A stretch of DNA of 64,000 nucleotides from an uncultured Candidatus Saccharibacteria bacterium. Lineage in GTDB: Bacteria > Patescibacteriota > Minisyncoccia > Phycocordibacterales > JABMNX01. Positions within the stretch are counted from its first letter, which is position 1; every line of letters starts with the position of its first letter. Positions 8,699 to 54,518 of this stretch are shown piece by piece. Both the position numbers and the translations under genes were made by a program. The stretch is from positions 115,347-179,346 of the forward strand of contig CAZNRH010000001.1 of assembly GCA_964575755.1 (NCBI GenBank), written 5' to 3'. The notes under the pieces were generated by a model. That model saw only the letters and a program-made list of their open reading frames with translations. It made no database searches and was not told the origin of the DNA.

Positions 8699-9277
8699 TT
8701 AGAAGAGATGTTCTTTTTTAAACTTCCTCCAAAGTGGCATAAAGTCTTTCTTAAAGACTGCCAATAGAATTTCGTCAACATATCTACCGTTGGCGAAGTT
8801 GTGTTTTTTTAGAGTTCCTTCCTCTATATATCCACACTTTTTACTATACCCGTAAGAGCGTTTATTGAATGCAAGTACAGAAGAACATACTTTACGTAGA
8901 TTGAGGGTATTAAAAGCATAGTTGAGTAAAAGCATCTTAGCTTCGGTTCCGTAACCCTTACCCCAACAGTCTTTTACTCCAATAAGAGCTCCAGTTGTTG
9001 CAGTTCCATTCATGTGATTAATTCCATGAAGCCCCATTGTGCCTATCGGCTTATTTTCATTAACTAGACATATCATAAGCACAACATCTTTGCCTTTATT
9101 TTTATGTAAGTCATCTATCCATTTCTCCTCATCCTCCTCCATTGCTGGATGGCAGGACATGAGATACTCGTAGATATCAGGATCGTTTATCCATTTTAAA
9201 AGAAGAATAACGTCTCTTTTAAGTAATGGGCGTAAATACACTTTTTTACCCTTTAGGAATTTAATATTCATTTTCAT
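8699..9277 (-). CDS. GNAT family N-acetyltransferase (RimJ/RimL-like)
   Basis: 192 aa; GNAT acetyl-CoA motif region GVKDCWGKGYGTEAKMLLLNYAFNTLNLRKV. Confidence 0.75.
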   Translation of the reverse strand: MKMNIKFLKGKKVYLRPLLKRDVILLLKWINDPDIYEYLMSCHPAMEEDEEKWIDDLHKNKGKDVVLMICLVNENKPIGTMGLHGINHMNGTATTGALIGVKDCWGKGYGTEAKMLLLNYAFNTLNLRKVCSSVLAFNKRSYGYSKKCGYIEEGTLKKHNFANGRYVDEILLAVFKKDFMPLWRKFKKEHLF

Positions 9278-9308
9278 CTCCTATGTTAAAGAACAAATAC
9301 TAAACAAA

Positions 9309-9339
9309 AACCTCGGCTTCTGTTCAGCCGAGGTTTTTC
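9309..9339. terminator. hairpin followed by T-run (cctcggct-tctgttc-agccgagg-ttttt); also reads as a terminator on the minus strand
   Basis: 8-bp GC-rich stem with a poly-T tail on both strands; no annotated gene ends here on the plus strand. Confidence 0.45.
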
Positions 9340-9555
9340 TGTGAAGGAGTTTCTTTATATATTTAAGAAAATACAAACATACCACGGCTGAATACAAGCG
9401 CTTTTGCGTATACAGGAGAAATAAGCCCCGCATCAAAGCGACAGTTATTTTTCATATTCATTTGTGTATGGTTGCTTACCATTACCTTAGTTTATATCGT
9501 ATACCTTAATAGATGTCAAGCATCCAAATGTTGTAGTGCAGGTATAATAACTCTT

Positions 9556-10486: not shown

Positions 10487-10509
10487 AATTTGTAAACTAA
10501 CTTAAAATT

Positions 10510-10541
10510 AAATAGCCAGAGTGCTCTGGCTATTTAATTCA
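10510..10541 (-). terminator. intrinsic terminator of the dsbA-like gene
   Basis: aaatagccagag-tg-ctctggctattt perfect stem, then a T-run on the minus strand. Confidence 0.65.
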
Positions 10542-33720: not shown

Positions 33721-33836
33721 AAGTAAAGTATAGCAAATGGTTCGAATCCTGTCGGGGGTCAACCAAAAGAGCCTTATTTGAAAGGCTCTTAAATCGGGCT
33801 CCGGCGACAGGACTCGAACCTGTGACATCCTCGTTA

Positions 33837-34408
33837 CACTTATCCTATTGTTTCCATTAGGGGTGGACTATATCATCATCCTTTTACACATGAAGTGTGA
33901 AGTGGGATGCAAGGCGCTTCGACCCTGTAAACTACAGGGGCTACTCCCGTAAGGGATAGTCTCTGAACCTTCAATGCACATAAGTGCAAAGCTTGGCTGC
34001 TGATTGCCCACAACATTACTTGCTAGGGTTTCCAGACAGTTCACCTTGTTTTCAATCCATGATTACTCATGAATGCTGCGTTTTCCGCCATGTACTTCTC
34101 TGTAACAATTTGCGCATAGGAGTATGCATCTATCTGCTTCAGCCTTTATTTTCTCCCAAGATCTGGTAAGTCCGCGGACAGACAGAATTCTTTTTGAGAT
34201 GGATCAAGGTGGTGCAAATCAAATGCTTCTGCATAACAACTATATCCACAAAGTTTACATTTACCGCCTTTATACTCAATGACCATTTGCTTCAACTTTC
34301 GTCGACGTTTTGCAACGGCTTTTATTAAGTACTCTCTGCGATCAGCGTACGTTCTTTTATCTGACATAGTATAAGTATACTATGTAAATTAGACGGGAAT
34401 TGTGTTCC
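33837..34408 (-). mobile_element. group I-like self-splicing intron carrying an HNH homing-endonuclease ORF
   Basis: 5' exon ends in U; the intron ends in G; candidate IGS GCAGC (complement of 34074..34078) pairs with exon end GCUGU including a U-G wobble; P2 hairpin CAUGA-GUAA-UCAUG; P7 strands GACUA...UAGUC; P9 hairpin CCUAAUGGAAACAAUAGG before omega-G. Confidence 0.65.
34146..34367 (-). CDS. HNH endonuclease (intron-encoded)
   Basis: 73 aa; CKLCGY ... FDLHHLDP (CxxC plus HH of the HNH motif); lies entirely inside the tRNA intervening sequence. Confidence 0.7.
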   Translation of the reverse strand: MSDKRTYADRREYLIKAVAKRRRKLKQMVIEYKGGKCKLCGYSCYAEAFDLHHLDPSQKEFCLSADLPDLGRK

Positions 34409-37430: not shown

Positions 37431-39335
37431 TTACAACAAGCTCTCGGGGTCTACTTTTATAAGGATTTGTGGTGGTAGAGAGCGAAGTTTTTTCAGTAGG
37501 TCTTTGGCTTGCTCAGGGTTAGACCACATCTCTGGTTTAATTTTAATAAGAGCATGACTGGTCTGCTTTCCGTGCCCTGAGGGTATAAACGCAGAGAATA
37601 CTCGCAAATCATAATCTTTAAATAACTCTTCGAGCATGTCGAGCCCCTTAGAGACAGCTATTTTAGTGCCTGAAATAGTGAGCTTAATAAATAAAGAAAA
37701 GGGCGGATATTCAAGATCTTTTCTTAACTTAATTTCTCTACGGTAAAACTCTAACAGGTTTCCATGCACAGCATCTTTGAGTACTTGTTGTTCCGGATTA
37801 CGTGTTTGTAGTAGAAACGATTGTTGAGCCAAAGAGCGCAGCGTGAGTAGTATGGAAAATATTTTTGTTTCAATTTTAAAGTCTGGAATAGACAGCAGAG
37901 AGTCCATTGATGCAATAGCAATATGCTCTATTGGATCCTCTATGTGAGAAAGCGCCATCTCTGTACCAATTAATACACTTCCTGGTGTATTTTTCCATTG
38001 CTCAATAACTACTCTGGCTTTTTTATACGTACTTGTTACATCGCTATCAATACGGAAAAAGATATGTTTTGGAAAACGTTCTTTTAGTTGCTCTTCTATT
38101 AGCTGAATCCCTGCGCCAAGTGCTACTAATTTCCAACCACCACAAACACGACATGTTTCGTTTGCCGAGCGCACCTCGCCATTTTGATGACAATAAAATA
38201 TATTACCCTTACTTGTTTTATGAAGAACCATTGGAGTGTCAGAATACTTACTTATAACCGTTGCGCCACAGTCTGAACACACTGTTGTCGGTGAAAGACC
38301 TCTCCGTGCACTGAAGATAAAGAGATGCGCCGCGCTTTGTTTCGTCTGGTCGACTATATCAGCCAACTCGTCGCTGATTATATCGTACCTACCTTTTAGA
38401 GTCGGTTTGTACTCTCTCATGTCTACTATTGAGTGCTTCGCTGGAGATAGTGGTCTAAAACGAAGGGGTGCAAGCTCAGTAAAAGACCCTTCGTAGTAGT
38501 AGTGAAGTGTTTCAATACGCAGAAATGAATCGGCAAAGATAATGCGTGCCTCTATTTTCTTGGCTAGCATATCTGCAAATACCCTTATATCGACATATGG
38601 ACGTACAAGAGACTTGTATGCACCAGAGCTTTCACGTTCAATTATTATCGTCTTAATATCAGACCGTGGAATTGACAGAAAGATGCCAGTTCCGATTATT
38701 GCTACTGGGTGGTCTGTTTTAAGTGCCTTGTTCCAACGCTCCTGCATTCGTTTTTTAGTGAGACTACTGTGAAGTCCAAACATATATGAATCTATACCTT
38801 TTTCTGACTTTGAAACAAATTGTTCTACATCGTGAAATGTTGGCATGCAGATAAACACAGACTGCTTACGAGCAAAAGCTTCACGAACGAGACTTCTATA
38901 TGTAGAAAAGCGCTCATCTTTATCTGTTTGAAGTACAAGTTTCTCGTAGCTTATTGTTGAAACAGTATTTTTCTTTGAAATAATACTGTGTGCTTCTTGA
39001 GGATTCTCAAGGATAGCTTTAGGTACAAGTAAATTAATAACAGCACCGGCGGTTCCTGTTGTGTAATCTGCCATATCAAGGACTGCCGACATAAATTCAG
39101 GAGAAAAAATTTCATCTTTTTTAACCTCGTCAATCTTTTTAATAGGGTAGGGGGAGAGCTTTAGTCTCGTTTTAACATCTTTCACTTCTTCAGTATATTC
39201 AACAATTGCTGACATCTGCCTGCTTCGAATTGGTACAGTAACAACCGCACCTTTCGGTATGTCTTTTTTTGAAAAATATGAAAGACGGTCTTTGGTGATA
39301 CCGCGCGATATTGGGATTACGTGGACTAGATACAT
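37431..39335 (-). CDS. priA: primosomal protein N' (PriA) homolog with degenerate helicase ATPase motifs
   Basis: 634 aa; N-terminal 3'-DNA-binding domain; Cys-rich zinc-finger insert (CSDCG...CHQNG...CRVCGG); the positions of Walker A (QTDKDERFS) and Walker B (IIIERESS) are non-canonical. Confidence 0.75.
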   Translation of the reverse strand: MYLVHVIPISRGITKDRLSYFSKKDIPKGAVVTVPIRSRQMSAIVEYTEEVKDVKTRLKLSPYPIKKIDEVKKDEIFSPEFMSAVLDMADYTTGTAGAVINLLVPKAILENPQEAHSIISKKNTVSTISYEKLVLQTDKDERFSTYRSLVREAFARKQSVFICMPTFHDVEQFVSKSEKGIDSYMFGLHSSLTKKRMQERWNKALKTDHPVAIIGTGIFLSIPRSDIKTIIIERESSGAYKSLVRPYVDIRVFADMLAKKIEARIIFADSFLRIETLHYYYEGSFTELAPLRFRPLSPAKHSIVDMREYKPTLKGRYDIISDELADIVDQTKQSAAHLFIFSARRGLSPTTVCSDCGATVISKYSDTPMVLHKTSKGNIFYCHQNGEVRSANETCRVCGGWKLVALGAGIQLIEEQLKERFPKHIFFRIDSDVTSTYKKARVVIEQWKNTPGSVLIGTEMALSHIEDPIEHIAIASMDSLLSIPDFKIETKIFSILLTLRSLAQQSFLLQTRNPEQQVLKDAVHGNLLEFYRREIKLRKDLEYPPFSLFIKLTISGTKIAVSKGLDMLEELFKDYDLRVFSAFIPSGHGKQTSHALIKIKPEMWSNPEQAKDLLKKLRSLPPQILIKVDPESLL

Positions 39336-39345
39336 ATCTACAGCA

Positions 39346-39480
39346 TACCAAAATTAGAACATGTGTACTTGGCGCACTTCTTTGTTACTTCACAGAACAC
39401 ATCAGTCACCATACGTCCGTATGCCTTCTTCTGTGTTCCGCTCGTGCCTCGAATTGCATCCAAGTACACACGTTCTAATT
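39346..39480 (-). promoter_or_regulatory. large stem-loop (21-bp terminal stem, ~90-nt interior) between the ClpX-ZBD ORF and the priA start
   Basis: aattagaacatgtgtacttgg / ccaagtacacacgttctaatt; the single mismatch becomes a G-U pair only in the minus-strand transcript; the stem ends ~10 nt before the priA ATG. Confidence 0.5.
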
Positions 39481-41361: not shown

Positions 41362-42375
41362 ATGTCATTTTTTACACCAAAACTAGGAATAGATTTAGGC
41401 ACCACATACACATTGGTGTATGTTCCTGGTAAAGGAGTTGTGTTAAATGAGCCGTCAGTAGTTGCAGTGTCAGAAATAGATAACAAAATACTTGCAGTAG
41501 GCAACGGTGCAAAGGACATGATAGGCCGAACGCCAGAGAGCATCATCGCATATCGCCCAATGAAAGATGGCGTTATTGCAGATTATAAAGTGACCGAGGC
41601 AATGCTTCGCTACTATATGAAGAAAGCACTTCCGTCGTGGAACGTATTTCGACCTGAAGTAATGATTTCAGTGCCAGCAGGAGTAACATCAACAGAAAGG
41701 CGAGCTGTGATTGAAGCTGCAACCAAAGCGGGTGCAAAAAGTGCATATGTGGTGAAAGAGCCAATACTCGCTGCAATAGGGGCTGGTATCCCAATACAAG
41801 AAGCGTGTGGACATATGATAGTGGACATAGGAGGGGGAACTATTGACGTAGCAGTGATTTCGCTTGGCGGTATTGTAGCTTCAACATCAGTAAAGTGTGC
41901 AGGGAACCGTATTGACCAAGCGATAGTAGATTACATAAAAAAGACATTTAACCTCGCTGTGGGGGACAAGACAGCAGAGGATATTAAAATTAAAGTAGGT
42001 TCAGCAGTACCTCTTGAAGAAGAGTTGGTGATGGTAATAAAAGGGCGAGACTTTTTAACTGGGTTGCCACGCTCTACTGACATACGAACAAATGAAATAG
42101 TGAAAGCAATCTCAAGAGAGCTGAGGGAAATGATTAAAGCGATTCGTGATGTACTACAAGATACACCACCTGAGCTCTCGGCTGACATTATTGATCAGGG
42201 GATAATCATGACAGGAGGTTCGTCATTACTACGAAACCTCCCAGAGTTAGTATTTCGTCGAACAGGGGTAAAAGCACATCTTGCTGATGACGCAAAATAT
42301 TGCGTAGCAAACGGTACAGGTATAGCACTCAATCATTTAGATACATATAAAAAGAGCATATTAGCGAAAAGGTAA
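41362..42375 (+). CDS. mreB: rod-shape-determining protein MreB (paralog 1, stand-alone)
   Basis: 337 aa; actin-fold phosphate motifs (DLGTTYTLVYV, DIGGGT). Confidence 0.9.
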   Translation: MSFFTPKLGIDLGTTYTLVYVPGKGVVLNEPSVVAVSEIDNKILAVGNGAKDMIGRTPESIIAYRPMKDGVIADYKVTEAMLRYYMKKALPSWNVFRPEVMISVPAGVTSTERRAVIEAATKAGAKSAYVVKEPILAAIGAGIPIQEACGHMIVDIGGGTIDVAVISLGGIVASTSVKCAGNRIDQAIVDYIKKTFNLAVGDKTAEDIKIKVGSAVPLEEELVMVIKGRDFLTGLPRSTDIRTNEIVKAISRELREMIKAIRDVLQDTPPELSADIIDQGIIMTGGSSLLRNLPELVFRRTGVKAHLADDAKYCVANGTGIALNHLDTYKKSILAKR

Positions 42376-42556
42376 GGGGTCGCTCGTTTTCTCTCTTTAT
42401 AAGACGAATGTTTCAGTAGTTGAAAATTAAAGTCGTATTAATAATAAAAAGTCCAAGACTCACTGCAAAAAGGTAGTTCAGACAATTGGACTTTTTTTAT
42501 TGCAACTCCTTAATTTTCTAACCACCTTTCGCAAGTCTTATAAAGAGAGAAAGCTC
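42376..42556 (+). repeat. TIR-bounded structured element 1 (starts at the mreB stop with TAAGGGGTCGCTCG; ~20-bp terminal inverted repeats ttctctctttataagac / gtcttataaagagagaa; internal terminator-like hairpin)
   Basis: Seen directly; shares its 5' box and architecture with the element at 53827..53985. Confidence 0.55.
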
Positions 42557-42620
42557 ACTGTGACTGACTCCGCCTTTTCTTTTTATGATTTTTTGTATGG
42601 TTTTGTTACTATAAGGGGTA

Positions 42621-47097: not shown

Positions 47098-47176
47098 GAT
47101 AGTTAAGCAAAGCAAATCACCACATCGCTTAGTTGTCCGACCATTAAGTGACGTTATTAGTGATATTATTAATGTA

Positions 47177-47848
47177 ATGAGAAAAACTCCTTTTATAACT
47201 GGTGAGTATTATCATATCTATAATCGCGGAGTAGAGAAAATAGATACATTCAAGGACTTACATGACGCTCAGCGTTTTTTGCAGAGCATGGAAGAGTTTA
47301 ATACTATTGAACCCATAGGAAGTATTTATGAAAATAATTTTCGTAAAAATAACCAACTTAGTGGTCGGACCACTAAGTCAGAAAGATTAGTGGAATTTTT
47401 GTGTTATTGCGTCAATCCTAATCATTATCATTTTGTATTATTACAGGTGGTTGATGGAGGTATAAGCGAATTCATTAGAAGGTTATCTGGTGGATATACA
47501 CGGTACTTTAATCACAGACATAAACGTTCTGGCGTGCTGTTTCAGGGGAAATTTAAATCTGTACACATAGATTCTAATGAATATTTATTACATTTAAGCG
47601 CATATGTAAATCTAAATAATAAAGTCCATAAACTTAGTGGTCCGACTGCTAAGTTAGTGAGATCAAGTTGGGATGAATATATCGATGGAAGTAGAAGAAA
47701 TAACAAAGAATGTTTTTGCAAGAAAGACATTATTTTAGGACAATTCAAAAACAAATCTGAATATAAAAAATATGCGGAATCTTCATTAAAAGACATGGTA
47801 AAAATAAAAGAAGTTACTAAAGGATTGGAAGATTTGCTATTAGAATAA
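47177..47848 (+). mobile_element. IS200/IS605-family Y1 (HUH) transposase, RAYT-like
   Basis: HUH motif NHYHFVL; C-terminal YTRYFNHRHKRSGVLFQGKFKS matches the RAYT/TnpA-IS200 consensus (RHGRSGHLWQGRFK) with the catalytic Tyr. Confidence 0.7.
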
Positions 47849-47859
47849 GTTACTCAGTT

Positions 47860-47894
47860 CTCTTCACTTAGTGGTCGGACCACTAAGTGAAGAG
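47860..47894. repeat. REP-like perfect palindrome downstream of the transposase (ctcttcacttagtggtc-cg-gaccactaagtgaagag); related copies at 47357..47377 (in-frame inside the gene), 47632..47656 (degenerate, inside the gene) and 47125..47152 (degenerate, upstream)
   Basis: The 22-nt core cttagtggtcggaccactaagt is identical between the internal and downstream copies. Confidence 0.7.
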
Positions 47895-47953
47895 AATGGT
47901 AAGAATGTATGCAAAAAACACTGTTTTGACCGTAGCGATTAGATACGATACTA

Positions 47954-49225: not shown

Positions 49226-49367
49226 AGGATTATGAATCCCGTTAAAGATAAGTCGTACGTAAATGACTGTCGGACACTGAAACAGAATATGAAACAAGGT
49301 CAACAATTACAAATATATTTAATTTTAGGACAAAGGTTGTTTACGCCGGTGTCCTATCTCTAACGGG

Positions 49368-50447
49368 ATGGATATTAAAAAGACTTTCAAAGACTATTTC
49401 GACAAGTTTTATAGATTATTTTCAAATGATATCGGCATAGATCTTGGTACAGCAAATACATTGGTTTACCTGCGTGGGCGTGGAGTGGTTATTAACGAAC
49501 CTTCTGTGGTTGCAGTTAATCAGAAGACAGGGCAAGTAGTCGCTGTTGGTAAACAAGCGAAAGAGATGTCTGGGCGTACACCAGGGCATATTGTAGCAAT
49601 ACAGCCGCTTGTTGAAGGCGTGGTTTCTGACTTTGAGGTAACAGAAGAAATGCTTGCGTATTTAATTAATAAAGCCCAAGAACACAGGCGAACTTTTCTG
49701 GGACCACGTGTGGTTATTGGCGTGCCATCTGGTATTACAAGTGTTGAAATAAGAGCAGTAAGAGACGCTGCAAGAAATGCAGGAGCGCGAGAAGTTCATA
49801 TTATAGAAGAGCCGATGGCTGCCGCAATAGGTATTAAGCTACCTGTACATGACCCCATTGGAAGTATGATAGTGGATATAGGTGGAGGTACTTGCGACGT
49901 GGCTATTATCTCACTTGGAGGCATAGTCCGATCTAAGAACATTCGAATAGCAGGAGATAAACTCAATCAGGATATTTCGAGCTACATTAGAAGTGAGTTT
50001 AAAATACTTATAGGAGACAAGACAGCAGAGGCACTTAAAATAAAAGCAGGTTCATTGGTTGAAGGTGATGAGCCGATTGAAGCTACTGTGCGAGGGCGTG
50101 ACCTTGTTACTGGACTACCAAGAGAAGTAATAATAACTGACGCAGACATACGTGAGGCAATCTCGGGCTCTATTAACCATCTCGTTGATGCTATTAAAGA
50201 AGTTCTTGAAACAACTCCACCTGAAATACTTTCTGATGTTATGCAAAGAGGTATGTATATTGCAGGCGGTGGGGCGTTAATTCAAGGCCTTTCAGAGGTT
50301 ATTGCAGAGTCAATTAACATACCAATATACGTGACCAGTGATCCGCTTACATCAGTTGTTCGTGGTACAGGTATTGTTCTTGAGGACATAGATAAATTTA
50401 AAGACATGCTAATAGAGAACGACAATGAGCTTACTCCAACAGAATAA
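49368..50447 (+). CDS. mreB: rod-shape-determining protein MreB (paralog 2, in the mreBCD-mrdA cluster)
   Basis: 359 aa; IGIDLGTANTLVY, DIGGGT. Confidence 0.9.
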   Translation: MDIKKTFKDYFDKFYRLFSNDIGIDLGTANTLVYLRGRGVVINEPSVVAVNQKTGQVVAVGKQAKEMSGRTPGHIVAIQPLVEGVVSDFEVTEEMLAYLINKAQEHRRTFLGPRVVIGVPSGITSVEIRAVRDAARNAGAREVHIIEEPMAAAIGIKLPVHDPIGSMIVDIGGGTCDVAIISLGGIVRSKNIRIAGDKLNQDISSYIRSEFKILIGDKTAEALKIKAGSLVEGDEPIEATVRGRDLVTGLPREVIITDADIREAISGSINHLVDAIKEVLETTPPEILSDVMQRGMYIAGGGALIQGLSEVIAESINIPIYVTSDPLTSVVRGTGIVLEDIDKFKDMLIENDNELTPTE

Positions 50448-53241: not shown

Positions 53242-53358
53242 CTCTTTTTTTATAGCTAGTACAATTCTTTTAAATTATTAGTGACATGTTTGCTTACAAA
53301 GTAATAAGATAATATAAATTAACACTTCGTAGTATTATTGCGAAAATTCTTTATACTC

Positions 53359-53826
53359 ATGACTGACAATAACAACTATCTAACACAAGAAAAATTCGAG
53401 GAGCTAACAAAAGAGCTTGAATATTTAAAGACAGAAAAACGAAAAGAAATCGCAGATAGTTTAGAGTATGCACGTTCGCTTGGGGATCTTTCTGAGAATG
53501 CTGAATATCAAGAAGCACGTGAAATGCAGGCTTCAACAGAAGATCGCATAAAACAATTCGAAGAAATCTTAAAAGATCCACAAATTGTTTCTCATAAAAA
53601 AAGTGACATAGTGGGGCTCGGCTCAACAGTCGTAATCAAAAAGGACGGAGGTAAGGATACCCACGAGTACCATATCGTTGGTTCAGAGGAAGCAGATATG
53701 CAAGAGCGAAAGATTTCGTACAACTCTCCACTAGGAGACGCAATGATGGGTAAGAAGAAGGGAGAAGAATTTACATTTGAGACTCCAAACGGAAAGCAGG
53801 ATTATAAGATTAAGTCTGTTGTCTAA
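53359..53826 (+). CDS. greA: transcription elongation factor GreA
   Basis: N-terminal coiled-coil with acidic tip (LGDLSENAEYQEA), C-terminal FKBP-like domain; ATG at 53359. Confidence 0.9.
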   Translation: MTDNNNYLTQEKFEELTKELEYLKTEKRKEIADSLEYARSLGDLSENAEYQEAREMQASTEDRIKQFEEILKDPQIVSHKKSDIVGLGSTVVIKKDGGKDTHEYHIVGSEEADMQERKISYNSPLGDAMMGKKKGEEFTFETPNGKQDYKIKSVV

Positions 53827-53985
53827 GGGTCGCTCGCTATTACATTTTAGAAACACACATAAGCCCCCAACGGGGGCTTTGCTATGCTCGGCACACGATT
53901 CCGTCGCTGTTGCTGAGGCAACATATGAGCGACGGACACCGTGCTGCGTGTGCCTGCGCAATGTTTCTAAAATGTAACAGCTCGC
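53827..53985 (+). repeat. TIR-bounded structured element 2 (starts at the greA stop with TAAGGGTCGCTCG; terminal inverted repeats ttacattttagaaaca / tgtttctaaaatgtaa; internal GC hairpins gcccccaacgggggc and gtcgc...gcgac)
   Basis: Seen directly. Confidence 0.55.
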
Positions 53986-54029
53986 TTAAATGGAAAATGT
54001 GCTGTGAATTTTTGTAAATGAAAAAATTG

Positions 54030-54068: not shown

Positions 54069-54518
54069 CTAGTTTATTTGGAGAATTGGTTTCTTGCGAA
54101 ATCCTTGGATGAATGAAAGGACTGCGAGAGCAATTCCCGTGATACCCGTGACCCACATAACGTTTCTTGTTTCGATATGTGGATAATCGTACCAGAAGAT
54201 CGATGGTGCACCAATCAGAAGACTTATTCCAATGGTGTACCAGAGCCAGTGTGGTTTGGCATTTCTCCACAGAGAGTCATTTTTGATGATGTACTGCCAC
54301 ATAAATCGCGTGACGCACTTCATCATCAATAGCATAATCCACAAAATGTGCCCGACGGCCCACATAAAGAACACTATTCCCGTACTGAAGGAAATGCCGA
54401 AACCAAGCGCATCTCGCACCTCGCGGTCATGCTCAGGTGTTTGTAGCGCCACCAAAAAGAAACCAAAAACAAGTACAATACCCACGACAAAGCAAGACCA
54501 GTTCCAAATTCGATACAT
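54069..54518 (-). CDS. hypothetical polytopic membrane protein
   Basis: 149 aa; four predicted TM helices; Trp-rich. Confidence 0.45.
   Translation of the reverse strand: MYRIWNWSCFVVGIVLVFGFFLVALQTPEHDREVRDALGFGISFSTGIVFFMWAVGHILWIMLLMMKCVTRFMWQYIIKNDSLWRNAKPHWLWYTIGISLLIGAPSIFWYDYPHIETRNVMWVTGITGIALAVLSFIQGFRKKPILQIN

Follow-up and report, generated by a model that had tools for sequence, protein, structure and literature searches.

A candidate family of hairpin-forming repeats behind mreB and greA in Patescibacteria

What kind of element begins where a gene ends? In the DNA analysed here, a 64,000-nucleotide stretch with a GC content of about 38% that we call the window, two structured segments follow the stop codons of mreB and greA. 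An earlier note on this DNA suggested that they were either MITE-like repeats or a family of large 3′-UTR structures. We refer to them as El1 (behind mreB) and El2 (behind greA), and we use relatives of the source genome to ask whether they belong together, whether they behave as RNA or as DNA, and how they compare with known repeats. The mreB loci closest to that of the window all come from MAGs of the Paceibacteria (Parcubacteria) group, and a public metagenome assembly holds an identical 4-kb contig. Loci from the related Paceibacteria genomes carry L-numbers (L002, L082, L220 and so on); L082 and L002 lie on one contig, CAZVBS010000005.1.

Both segments do lie directly behind their genes: Pfam confirms mreB and greA, and at each of them a TAA runs straight into the box (Table 1). 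The 13-nt box that the two were said to share needs a correction, because the mreB copy has one extra G. The 13-mer TAAGGGTCGCTCG is inexact in El1, which has four G, and the exact shared string is the 10-mer GGGTCGCTCG. Within the window this 10-mer is found at El1 and El2 and nowhere else, even when one mismatch is allowed; further copies of the box are found in related genomes. Terminal inverted repeats of about 20 bp are present as described. The internal GC hairpins hold for El2 but not for El1, where the interior is AT-rich. The elements are 170-190 nt long, and both extend about 10 nt beyond the ends first assigned to them, into a second, right-hand box of which the form common to El1 and El2 is GCTCRCT-NN-RAYKGA. 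The same type of right box follows every copy in the relatives, three times in L220, and the same left box is found 3′ of mreB in L002 and 3′ of greA in L082, L085, L218 and L220.

Table 1. Positions of El1, El2, their host genes and associated features (window coordinates, except where a locus is named).
Feature	Position	Strand	Description
mreB	41362..42375	+	Pfam MreB_Mbl 3.9e-131; ends in TAA
mreB stop TAA	42373..42375	+	El1 starts at the next base
El1 left box GGGGTCGCTCG	42376..42386	+	TCGCTC at 42380-42385
El1 body	42387..42552	+	Single long imperfect hairpin (rod)
El1 outer arms	42388-42405 and 42535-42552		18 nt, 100% complementary, 129 nt apart
El1 apical hairpin	42446-42456 and 42486-42496		AAAAAGTCCAA (first segment) pairs with TTGGACTTTTT (second segment), then a T-run
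El1 right box GCTCACTGTGACTGA	42553..42567	+	Degenerate copy of the consensus GCTCGCT-NN-GACGGA
greA	53338..53826	+	Pfam GreA_GreB_N and GreA_GreB; ends in TAA
greA stop TAA	53824..53826	+	El2 starts at the next base
El2 left box GGGTCGCTCG	53827..53836	+	TCGCTC at 53830-53835
El2 body	53836..53981	+	20-bp outer stem enclosing hairpins
El2 outer stem	53836-53855 and 53962-53981		20 nt, 95% complementary (19/20), 106 nt apart
El2 GC hairpin	53861-53868 with 53872-53879		Inside the outer stem
El2 second nested hairpin	53890-53897 with 53947-53954; 53900-53908 with 53928-53936		
El2 right box GCTCGCTTAAATGGA	53980..53994	+	
L220 tandem stack behind greA	L220:1113-1560		Whole El2-type and two El1-type right halves, each with a right box
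RAYT-like Y1 transposase gene	47177-47848 (site 47128-47888)		Pfam Y1_Tnp

Every body is flanked by a 6-nt direct repeat, TCGCTC on the left and TCGCTY on the right, which is accompanied by further conserved bases, GG before it and WRAYGGA after it. The conserved ends, (G)GGTCGCTCG and GCTCGCT-NN-GACGGA, are short, are not palindromic in themselves and form a direct repeat with one another. Because one sequence recurs in this flanking repeat from copy to copy, an ordinary target-site duplication seems unlikely. Since GCTCGC is quasi-palindromic, the left box can pair with the right box at the base of the hairpin, its foot; read in the other register, TCGCTC forms a true direct repeat. In the predicted foot the left box, GUC-GC-UC-G, pairs with C-UC-GC-UNN-GAC of the right box around a 2x2 UC/UC internal loop. 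The sequences of the inverted-repeat arms are unrelated between El1 and El2, and they vary among the El1-type copies.

Shared targeting of stop codons would be unusual, as the earlier note remarked. Within the scope of our reading (64 kb from the source genome and no more than 20 kb from any relative) there are two copies per genome, and in all element-bearing genomes examined the occupied slots are those of mreB and greA only. One copy follows a TAG, and the spacing between stop codon and TCGCTC ranges from about 0 to 4 nt across copies. What stays constant is the box with TCGCTC rather than the stop codon, and targeting of the stop codon as such is not supported.

Other structures also meet the end of mreB in this group. 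Unrelated elements of 110-170 nt that are bounded by inverted repeats start at or include the mreB stop in L013, L056, L047, L063, L039, L018 and L048; in several of these the downstream arm complements the last sense codon and the stop, and they have no Rfam match. Inverted repeats with a 12-nt arm lie at the mreB stop in 5 of 79 loci, against 0 of 79 at each of four control coding positions. In genomes as compact as these, it may simply be usual for such structures to abut a stop codon. Furthermore, the mreB 3′ flanks of L008, L017, L024, L067 and L078 carry a motif pair, TTCTCCCTTTGTAAAGGGAG and its complement, around a GGAGGGATTT...AAATCCCTCC hairpin. The carriers include several Taylorbacteria-like MAGs, there is no Rfam match, and the flanked hairpin may be another structured repeat or RNA.

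Do the bodies behave as a single structure? El1 folds at -69.9 kcal/mol (z = -8.2) and El2 has a z of -5.7, and in both cases 0 of 200 shuffles were as good. The four El1-type copies have one rod of about 95 bp in common. Standard pairs fill 94.4% of its cells, versus 43-53% when the 3′ partners are slid. Thirty of 62 pairs are changed on both sides; shuffles give 10.3 ± 2.5 (0 of 500 reach 30) and slid partners 0-6. The orthologous mreB elements of the window and L002, which are about 65% identical, show the same pattern: both partners differ in 15 of 54 pairs, yet no pair is broken. Between El2 of the window and its counterpart in L220, four substitutions in paired columns make up two compensatory pairs, and the remaining seven changes fall within 45 unpaired columns. 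These comparisons show that pairing inside the body is preserved through changes on both sides of the pairs.

A covariance model, R1, was built from the four El1-type (mreB-type) copies with El2 left out. With it the whole of El2 is detected, at 29.9 bits (E about 3e-5), and in the window only El1 and the reverse strand of El1 score higher. El2 is the only other real match there, and R1 matches at 9243-9400, 47843-47911 and 33728-33830 were rejected as ordinary hairpins that are not family members. Outside the window R1 also finds the El2-type copy in L220 and, at 47 bits, an El1-core homologue in L066 that sits inside a differently footed 175-nt rod; weaker matches are found in L024 (21 bits) and in L048, directly 3′ of the mreB stop. 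The homologues in L066 and L024, which are more distant genomes, occupy other intergenic sites. The covariance-model search first proposed for these two copies thus recovers one from a model of the other type, with strong covariation in relatives.

The same results dispose of the proposal that El1 and El2 are terminator hairpins with no relation to each other, in which the common 10-mer is a coincidence. Terminator-like hairpins do lie inside both elements, but the two have boxes in common on both sides, the covariance model detects one element from the other, and homologous copies covary in relatives; the proposal is already refuted.

Covariation is compatible with selection on an RNA, and the main rival to a mobile repeat takes the elements as a vertically inherited, cis-acting rod RNA of the 3′-UTR. 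A protein, for example RNase III or a stabilising factor, would bind or cleave its foot, the rod would serve to tune how strongly mreB and greA are expressed, and the bodies would differ through fast evolution of stems under selection for pairing. The covariation is very strong, as this reading predicts, all copies have the same sense orientation behind a stop codon, the apical loop motifs CAAGACUC and UCAGACAAUU are kept while the stems change, and the predicted foot can enclose the stop codon. However, the plus strand is not singled out: the minus strand folds as well or better in four of the five long copies, by 7-13 kcal/mol, and the four-copy alignment has about as many A.C cells (9) as G.U cells (8). 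Nor do either element or the 14 related loci match Rfam 15 at the gathering threshold; below that threshold there are matches to generic (miRNA-like) hairpins only.

The distribution of copies among relatives bears on the same question. At the mreB slot, the box is found in one of 80 Paceibacteria loci, the closest one (L002; MreB 94% identical), where it is followed by a 20-nt inverted repeat whose sequence is unlike that of the window; 78 other mreB loci have no element. At the greA slot, L082 holds a body of the type found behind mreB in the window, 83% identical to it over 191 nt and 90% over 114 nt, which is a closer likeness than that of the orthologous mreB elements among themselves. 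El1-type bodies also lie behind greA in L092 and L091, where the box is shortened to TAA-CGCTCG. These two loci are 100% identical in greA and the 800 nt upstream, but their elements share only 73% identity and begin to diverge immediately behind CGCTCG. L085 has the box and a short remnant behind greA, and L218 retains just the left half of El2, which there follows a TAG.

El2 itself is about 93% identical across the body between the window and L220. The greA genes of the two are 77% identical, with 49% identity at third codon positions, and their synonymous sites are therefore saturated. El2 is missing from L082, a closer relative than L220, and the greA loci of L089, L093, L095 and L096 (GreA 81-85% identical to that of the window) have no element, so that presence is patchy among equally close relatives. 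The stack behind greA in L220 begins with the box, El2 and a right box, continues with two El1 right halves, each followed by its own right box, and ends in a terminator. Both half copies start at AACGAC-AATTGGAC, where the GAC of a right box is joined to the apical-loop motif CAGAC-AATTGGAC; these joins hint at a recurrent site of cutting or joining at (A/U)GAC.

These comparisons show that one docking site hosts different bodies, of at least two types (the AT-rich El1 and the GC-rich El2), that bodies pass between the mreB and greA slots and among related genomes, and that they can be stacked in tandem, truncated or lost. A vertically inherited cis-acting RNA does not sit well with a nearly unchanged El2 that is absent from a closer relative, with body types that swap slots, with different bodies between the identical flanks of L091 and L092, with the stacked halves of L220 or with the many close relatives that carry no element. 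We consider such an RNA an unlikely, if still the most serious, alternative. Support for exchange at the level of DNA is stronger than support for a plus-strand RNA.

Could the palindromes have arisen in place? Template switching during replication can correct quasipalindromes, a mechanism known from the mutation literature. With it, the arms would co-vary since one is copied from the other, the likeness across slots would come from occasional ectopic gene conversion, and neither mobility nor function would be involved. The outer stems, perfect or nearly so (18/18 and 19/20), are what such copying would leave, and the mismatch types have no strand bias. The right arms of the unrelated Paceibacteria inverted repeats mentioned above complement the end of mreB, and an arm of a window repeat at 49231-49374 covers the start codon of mreB-2, so that arms look templated from local gene sequence. 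This mechanism, which comes next after the cis-acting RNA, leaves unexplained why two unlinked loci have both boxes in common, why a distant genome holds an almost identical El2, why El1-core homologues occupy other sites elsewhere among the lineages, and why each unit of the ordered L220 stack is followed by a right box. We hold it to be improbable.

The window repeat at 49231-49374 is an inverted-repeat-bounded insertion of 136 nt between a class II aminoacyl-tRNA synthetase gene (tRNA-synt_2b) and mreB-2. L082 lacks it and has 6 nt between the stop codon and the start codon. As the right arm of the insertion covers the ATG, a long-range stem would sequester the mreB-2 start codon. In the leader of a PriA-like gene (37431..39335, minus strand), just downstream of the terminator of the preceding gene, there is another inverted repeat of the window, at 39352-39480 (21 nt, 95% complementary, with 87 nt between the arms).

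The stability of the minus strand raises the possibility that the elements are small RNA genes on that strand, convergent with mreB and greA and with their 3′ ends abutting the stop codons. Besides the more stable minus-strand folds, the terminator scan agrees with this for El2, where the GC hairpin scores on the minus strand only and a weak hairpin scores on the plus strand. The scan calls no terminator in El1, whose apex (an A-tract, a stem of 6-11 bp, a 29-nt insert and a T7 run) is atypical for a simple intrinsic terminator. But a conserved minus-strand promoter beside the right box is absent, and in L092 there is no room for one, as a bidirectional terminator directly adjoins the right box. 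Small RNA genes would also face the same problems of mobility and distribution as the cis-acting RNA, and the lack of an Rfam match; we regard them as very improbable.

Some further ideas were rejected outright. A readthrough or recoding signal was dropped, the frames after the stop being short and different between copies. The elements are not a retron, a T-box, a 6S-like RNA or an IS110 bridge RNA: genes for a reverse transcriptase or a recombinase are absent from the neighbourhood, the fold has no central bubble, Rfam gives no match, and close relatives lack the elements.

If the bodies move, what might move them? On sequence grounds, a possible mobilising enzyme is the product of the RAYT-like gene of the window (Table 1), which matches the NCBIfam model REP_Tyr_transpos (REP-associated tyrosine transposase) at 27.7 bits, against a cutoff of 80. 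The gene is flanked by a 23-nt palindrome, ACTTAGTGGTCGGACCACTAAGT, that is unrelated to the boxes. Two further copies of the palindrome lie in frame within the coding sequence, encoding QLSGRTTKS and KLSGPTAKL, and the syntenic site in L082 has a single palindrome and no gene. Elsewhere, a perfect palindrome of 34-36 nt (AATTAAATAGCCAGAG / CTCTGGCTATTTAATT) is found at window 10506-10539 and at L082:2799-2835, 97% identical at non-syntenic intergenic sites, which points to mobility of short, terminator-like palindromes in this lineage as well.

Two other insertions in the window deserve mention. A group I intron (Rfam RF00028, 72.7 bits) lies at 33844-34117 on the minus strand, and immediately after it comes an apparent tRNA 3′ half, GGTTCGAGTCCTGTCGCCGGAGCC; the region 33790-34160 is probably an intron-split tRNA gene, one that ARAGORN does not call. 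At 54069-54518, also on the minus strand, a gene for a tryptophan-rich predicted membrane protein of 149 aa with no family match has been inserted, together with its own terminator, between El2 and lysS relative to L082.

Which known repeats do El1 and El2 resemble? In REPINs the ends are conserved, the spacer varies but forms a hairpin and shows compensatory changes, and the elements occur in clusters (PMC3116915). El1 and El2 are likewise non-coding and extragenic, with conserved ends and a less conserved spacer that still makes one long hairpin, and this spacer has the compensatory changes of a REPIN. Ordered clustering (L220) and a single RAYT-type gene in the genome are further likenesses. 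Unlike the two inverted REP palindromes of 20-40 nt in a REPIN, the ends here are of about 9 and 15 nt and share a direct TCGCTC. The elements are also longer (170-190 nt) and have been seen in two slots, while abundant dispersed copies are the hallmark of REPINs and MITEs, and the RAYT-like gene of the window is flanked by its own palindrome and not, as in a REP-RAYT arrangement, by the boxes.

REP clusters and dimers fold into larger structures (PMC3733652), and the L220 stack resembles such BIMEs in that complete and half hairpin units follow one another in tandem as a mosaic, with a short motif repeated between them. Its units are far longer than REPs, however, and the GTAG/CGTC tag is inconsistent, with CGTC on the minus strand of some right boxes only.

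MITEs of DDE transposons have inverted repeats shared by all members and a parent insertion sequence, and these we did not find in the loci examined; nor did any of these loci hold a coding (autonomous) element with the same ends. Correia, ERIC/IRU, RUP and EFAR repeats are 100-200 nt long, with terminal inverted repeats and a short direct repeat at both ends. They sit just 3′ of genes and are co-transcribed with them, their hairpin can affect termination or mRNA stability, and it is the inverted-repeat sequence that defines each family. Size class, terminal inverted repeats, end direct repeat and location behind genes are all shared by El1 and El2; in contrast, the constant part of the present family lies outside the arms, and no parent insertion sequence is known for it.

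Like the attC sites of integrons, the elements are imperfect palindromes right after a stop codon in which structure is conserved far more than sequence, and only short end motifs are constant. attC sites are recombined as folded single strands. The end motifs here are not RYYYAAC / GTTRRRY, though, what lies upstream is not a cassette but a core housekeeping gene in conserved synteny, and we have seen no integrase or attI. Palindrome-associated elements derived from IS200/IS605 have distinct left and right subterminal hairpins, lack direct repeats and insert 3′ of a 4-5-nt target, whereas El1 and El2 each fold as a single hairpin and do have direct repeats.

The reading that we prefer, with somewhat more confidence than doubt, is that El1 and El2 belong to a lineage-restricted, non-autonomous family of hairpin-forming repeats that resembles REPINs or MITEs. 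REPINs and MITE-type repeats are the closest known class because of the conserved short ends, the self-complementary body with compensatory change, the clusters, the patchy distribution across loci and the RAYT-like gene. We call the family a variant of that class because its ends are not REP palindromes, its arm sequences are not shared among members and the palindrome of the RAYT-like gene is a different one. It is a local variant of the miniature hairpin repeats of other bacteria and not a new kind of system. As for the original pair of readings, a structured, MITE-like family stands, on the strength of the boxes, the covariance model, the covariation and the patchy distribution. It may be a MITE-like repeat, a 3′-UTR structure or both, as the two are mutually compatible.

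How would such a family work? Each copy follows one plan: a left box, (G)GG-TCGCTC-N, a self-folding body of 130-170 nt and a right box, N-TCGCTY-WRAYGGA, with the boxes pairing imperfectly as the hairpin foot. The bodies would move, or be converted, as DNA. Their most plausible substrate would be a single-stranded DNA hairpin recognised by a trans-acting enzyme, for example a Y1/HUH transposase; alternatively, ectopic gene conversion between copies might stop at the boxes. Because each element starts at the stop codon, in sense orientation and with no promoter in between, it would be expected to be transcribed with mreB or greA as a 3′-UTR hairpin that probably serves to end transcription or to hold off 3′ exonucleases. 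Part of the pattern could be explained without transposition, by an ancient vertical presence followed by differential loss from a tandem array such as that of L220. An empty docking site, in which GGTCGCTC would be joined directly to WRAYGGA, was found at none of the loci examined.

A bolder version of the preferred repeat family is that the boxes GG-TCGCTC ... TCGCTY-WRAYGGA form a docking site at gene 3′ ends, at which unrelated hairpin cassettes are integrated, replaced and stacked by site-specific recombination of single-stranded DNA. The RAYT-like Y1 protein could be the enzyme, cutting (A/U)GAC in the apical loops and in the right box. We think this doubtful, about as improbable as template switching. 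If it were true, Patescibacteria would have an integron-like system whose cargo is RNA or DNA structure instead of genes.

Searches in larger collections did not extend the family. A tolerant pattern for the right half of El1 gave no matches in metagenome contigs and none in viral contigs. A two-box pattern gave at least 119 matches in metagenome contigs, of which all those listed are high-GC chance matches without the rod fold, and two in viral contigs, both due to chance. BLAST against phage and plasmid collections gave no match to the elements. Our literature search did not find such elements described in Patescibacteria.

The genomes of Patescibacteria are very small and tightly packed, and to our knowledge few mobile or repeated elements have been described in them. 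Repeats that are kept, swapped and stacked behind essential genes such as mreB and greA would indicate that even these small genomes tolerate, or make use of, structured selfish DNA. The family is a concrete candidate for the formation of transcript 3′ ends in these bacteria, and a tractable test case for hairpin-based mobility of DNA, in which different bodies occupy one docking motif. Furthermore, the elements could serve as strain-level markers in metagenomes. In summary, the finding opens no new category; it extends the known class of REPIN- and MITE-type palindromic repeats.
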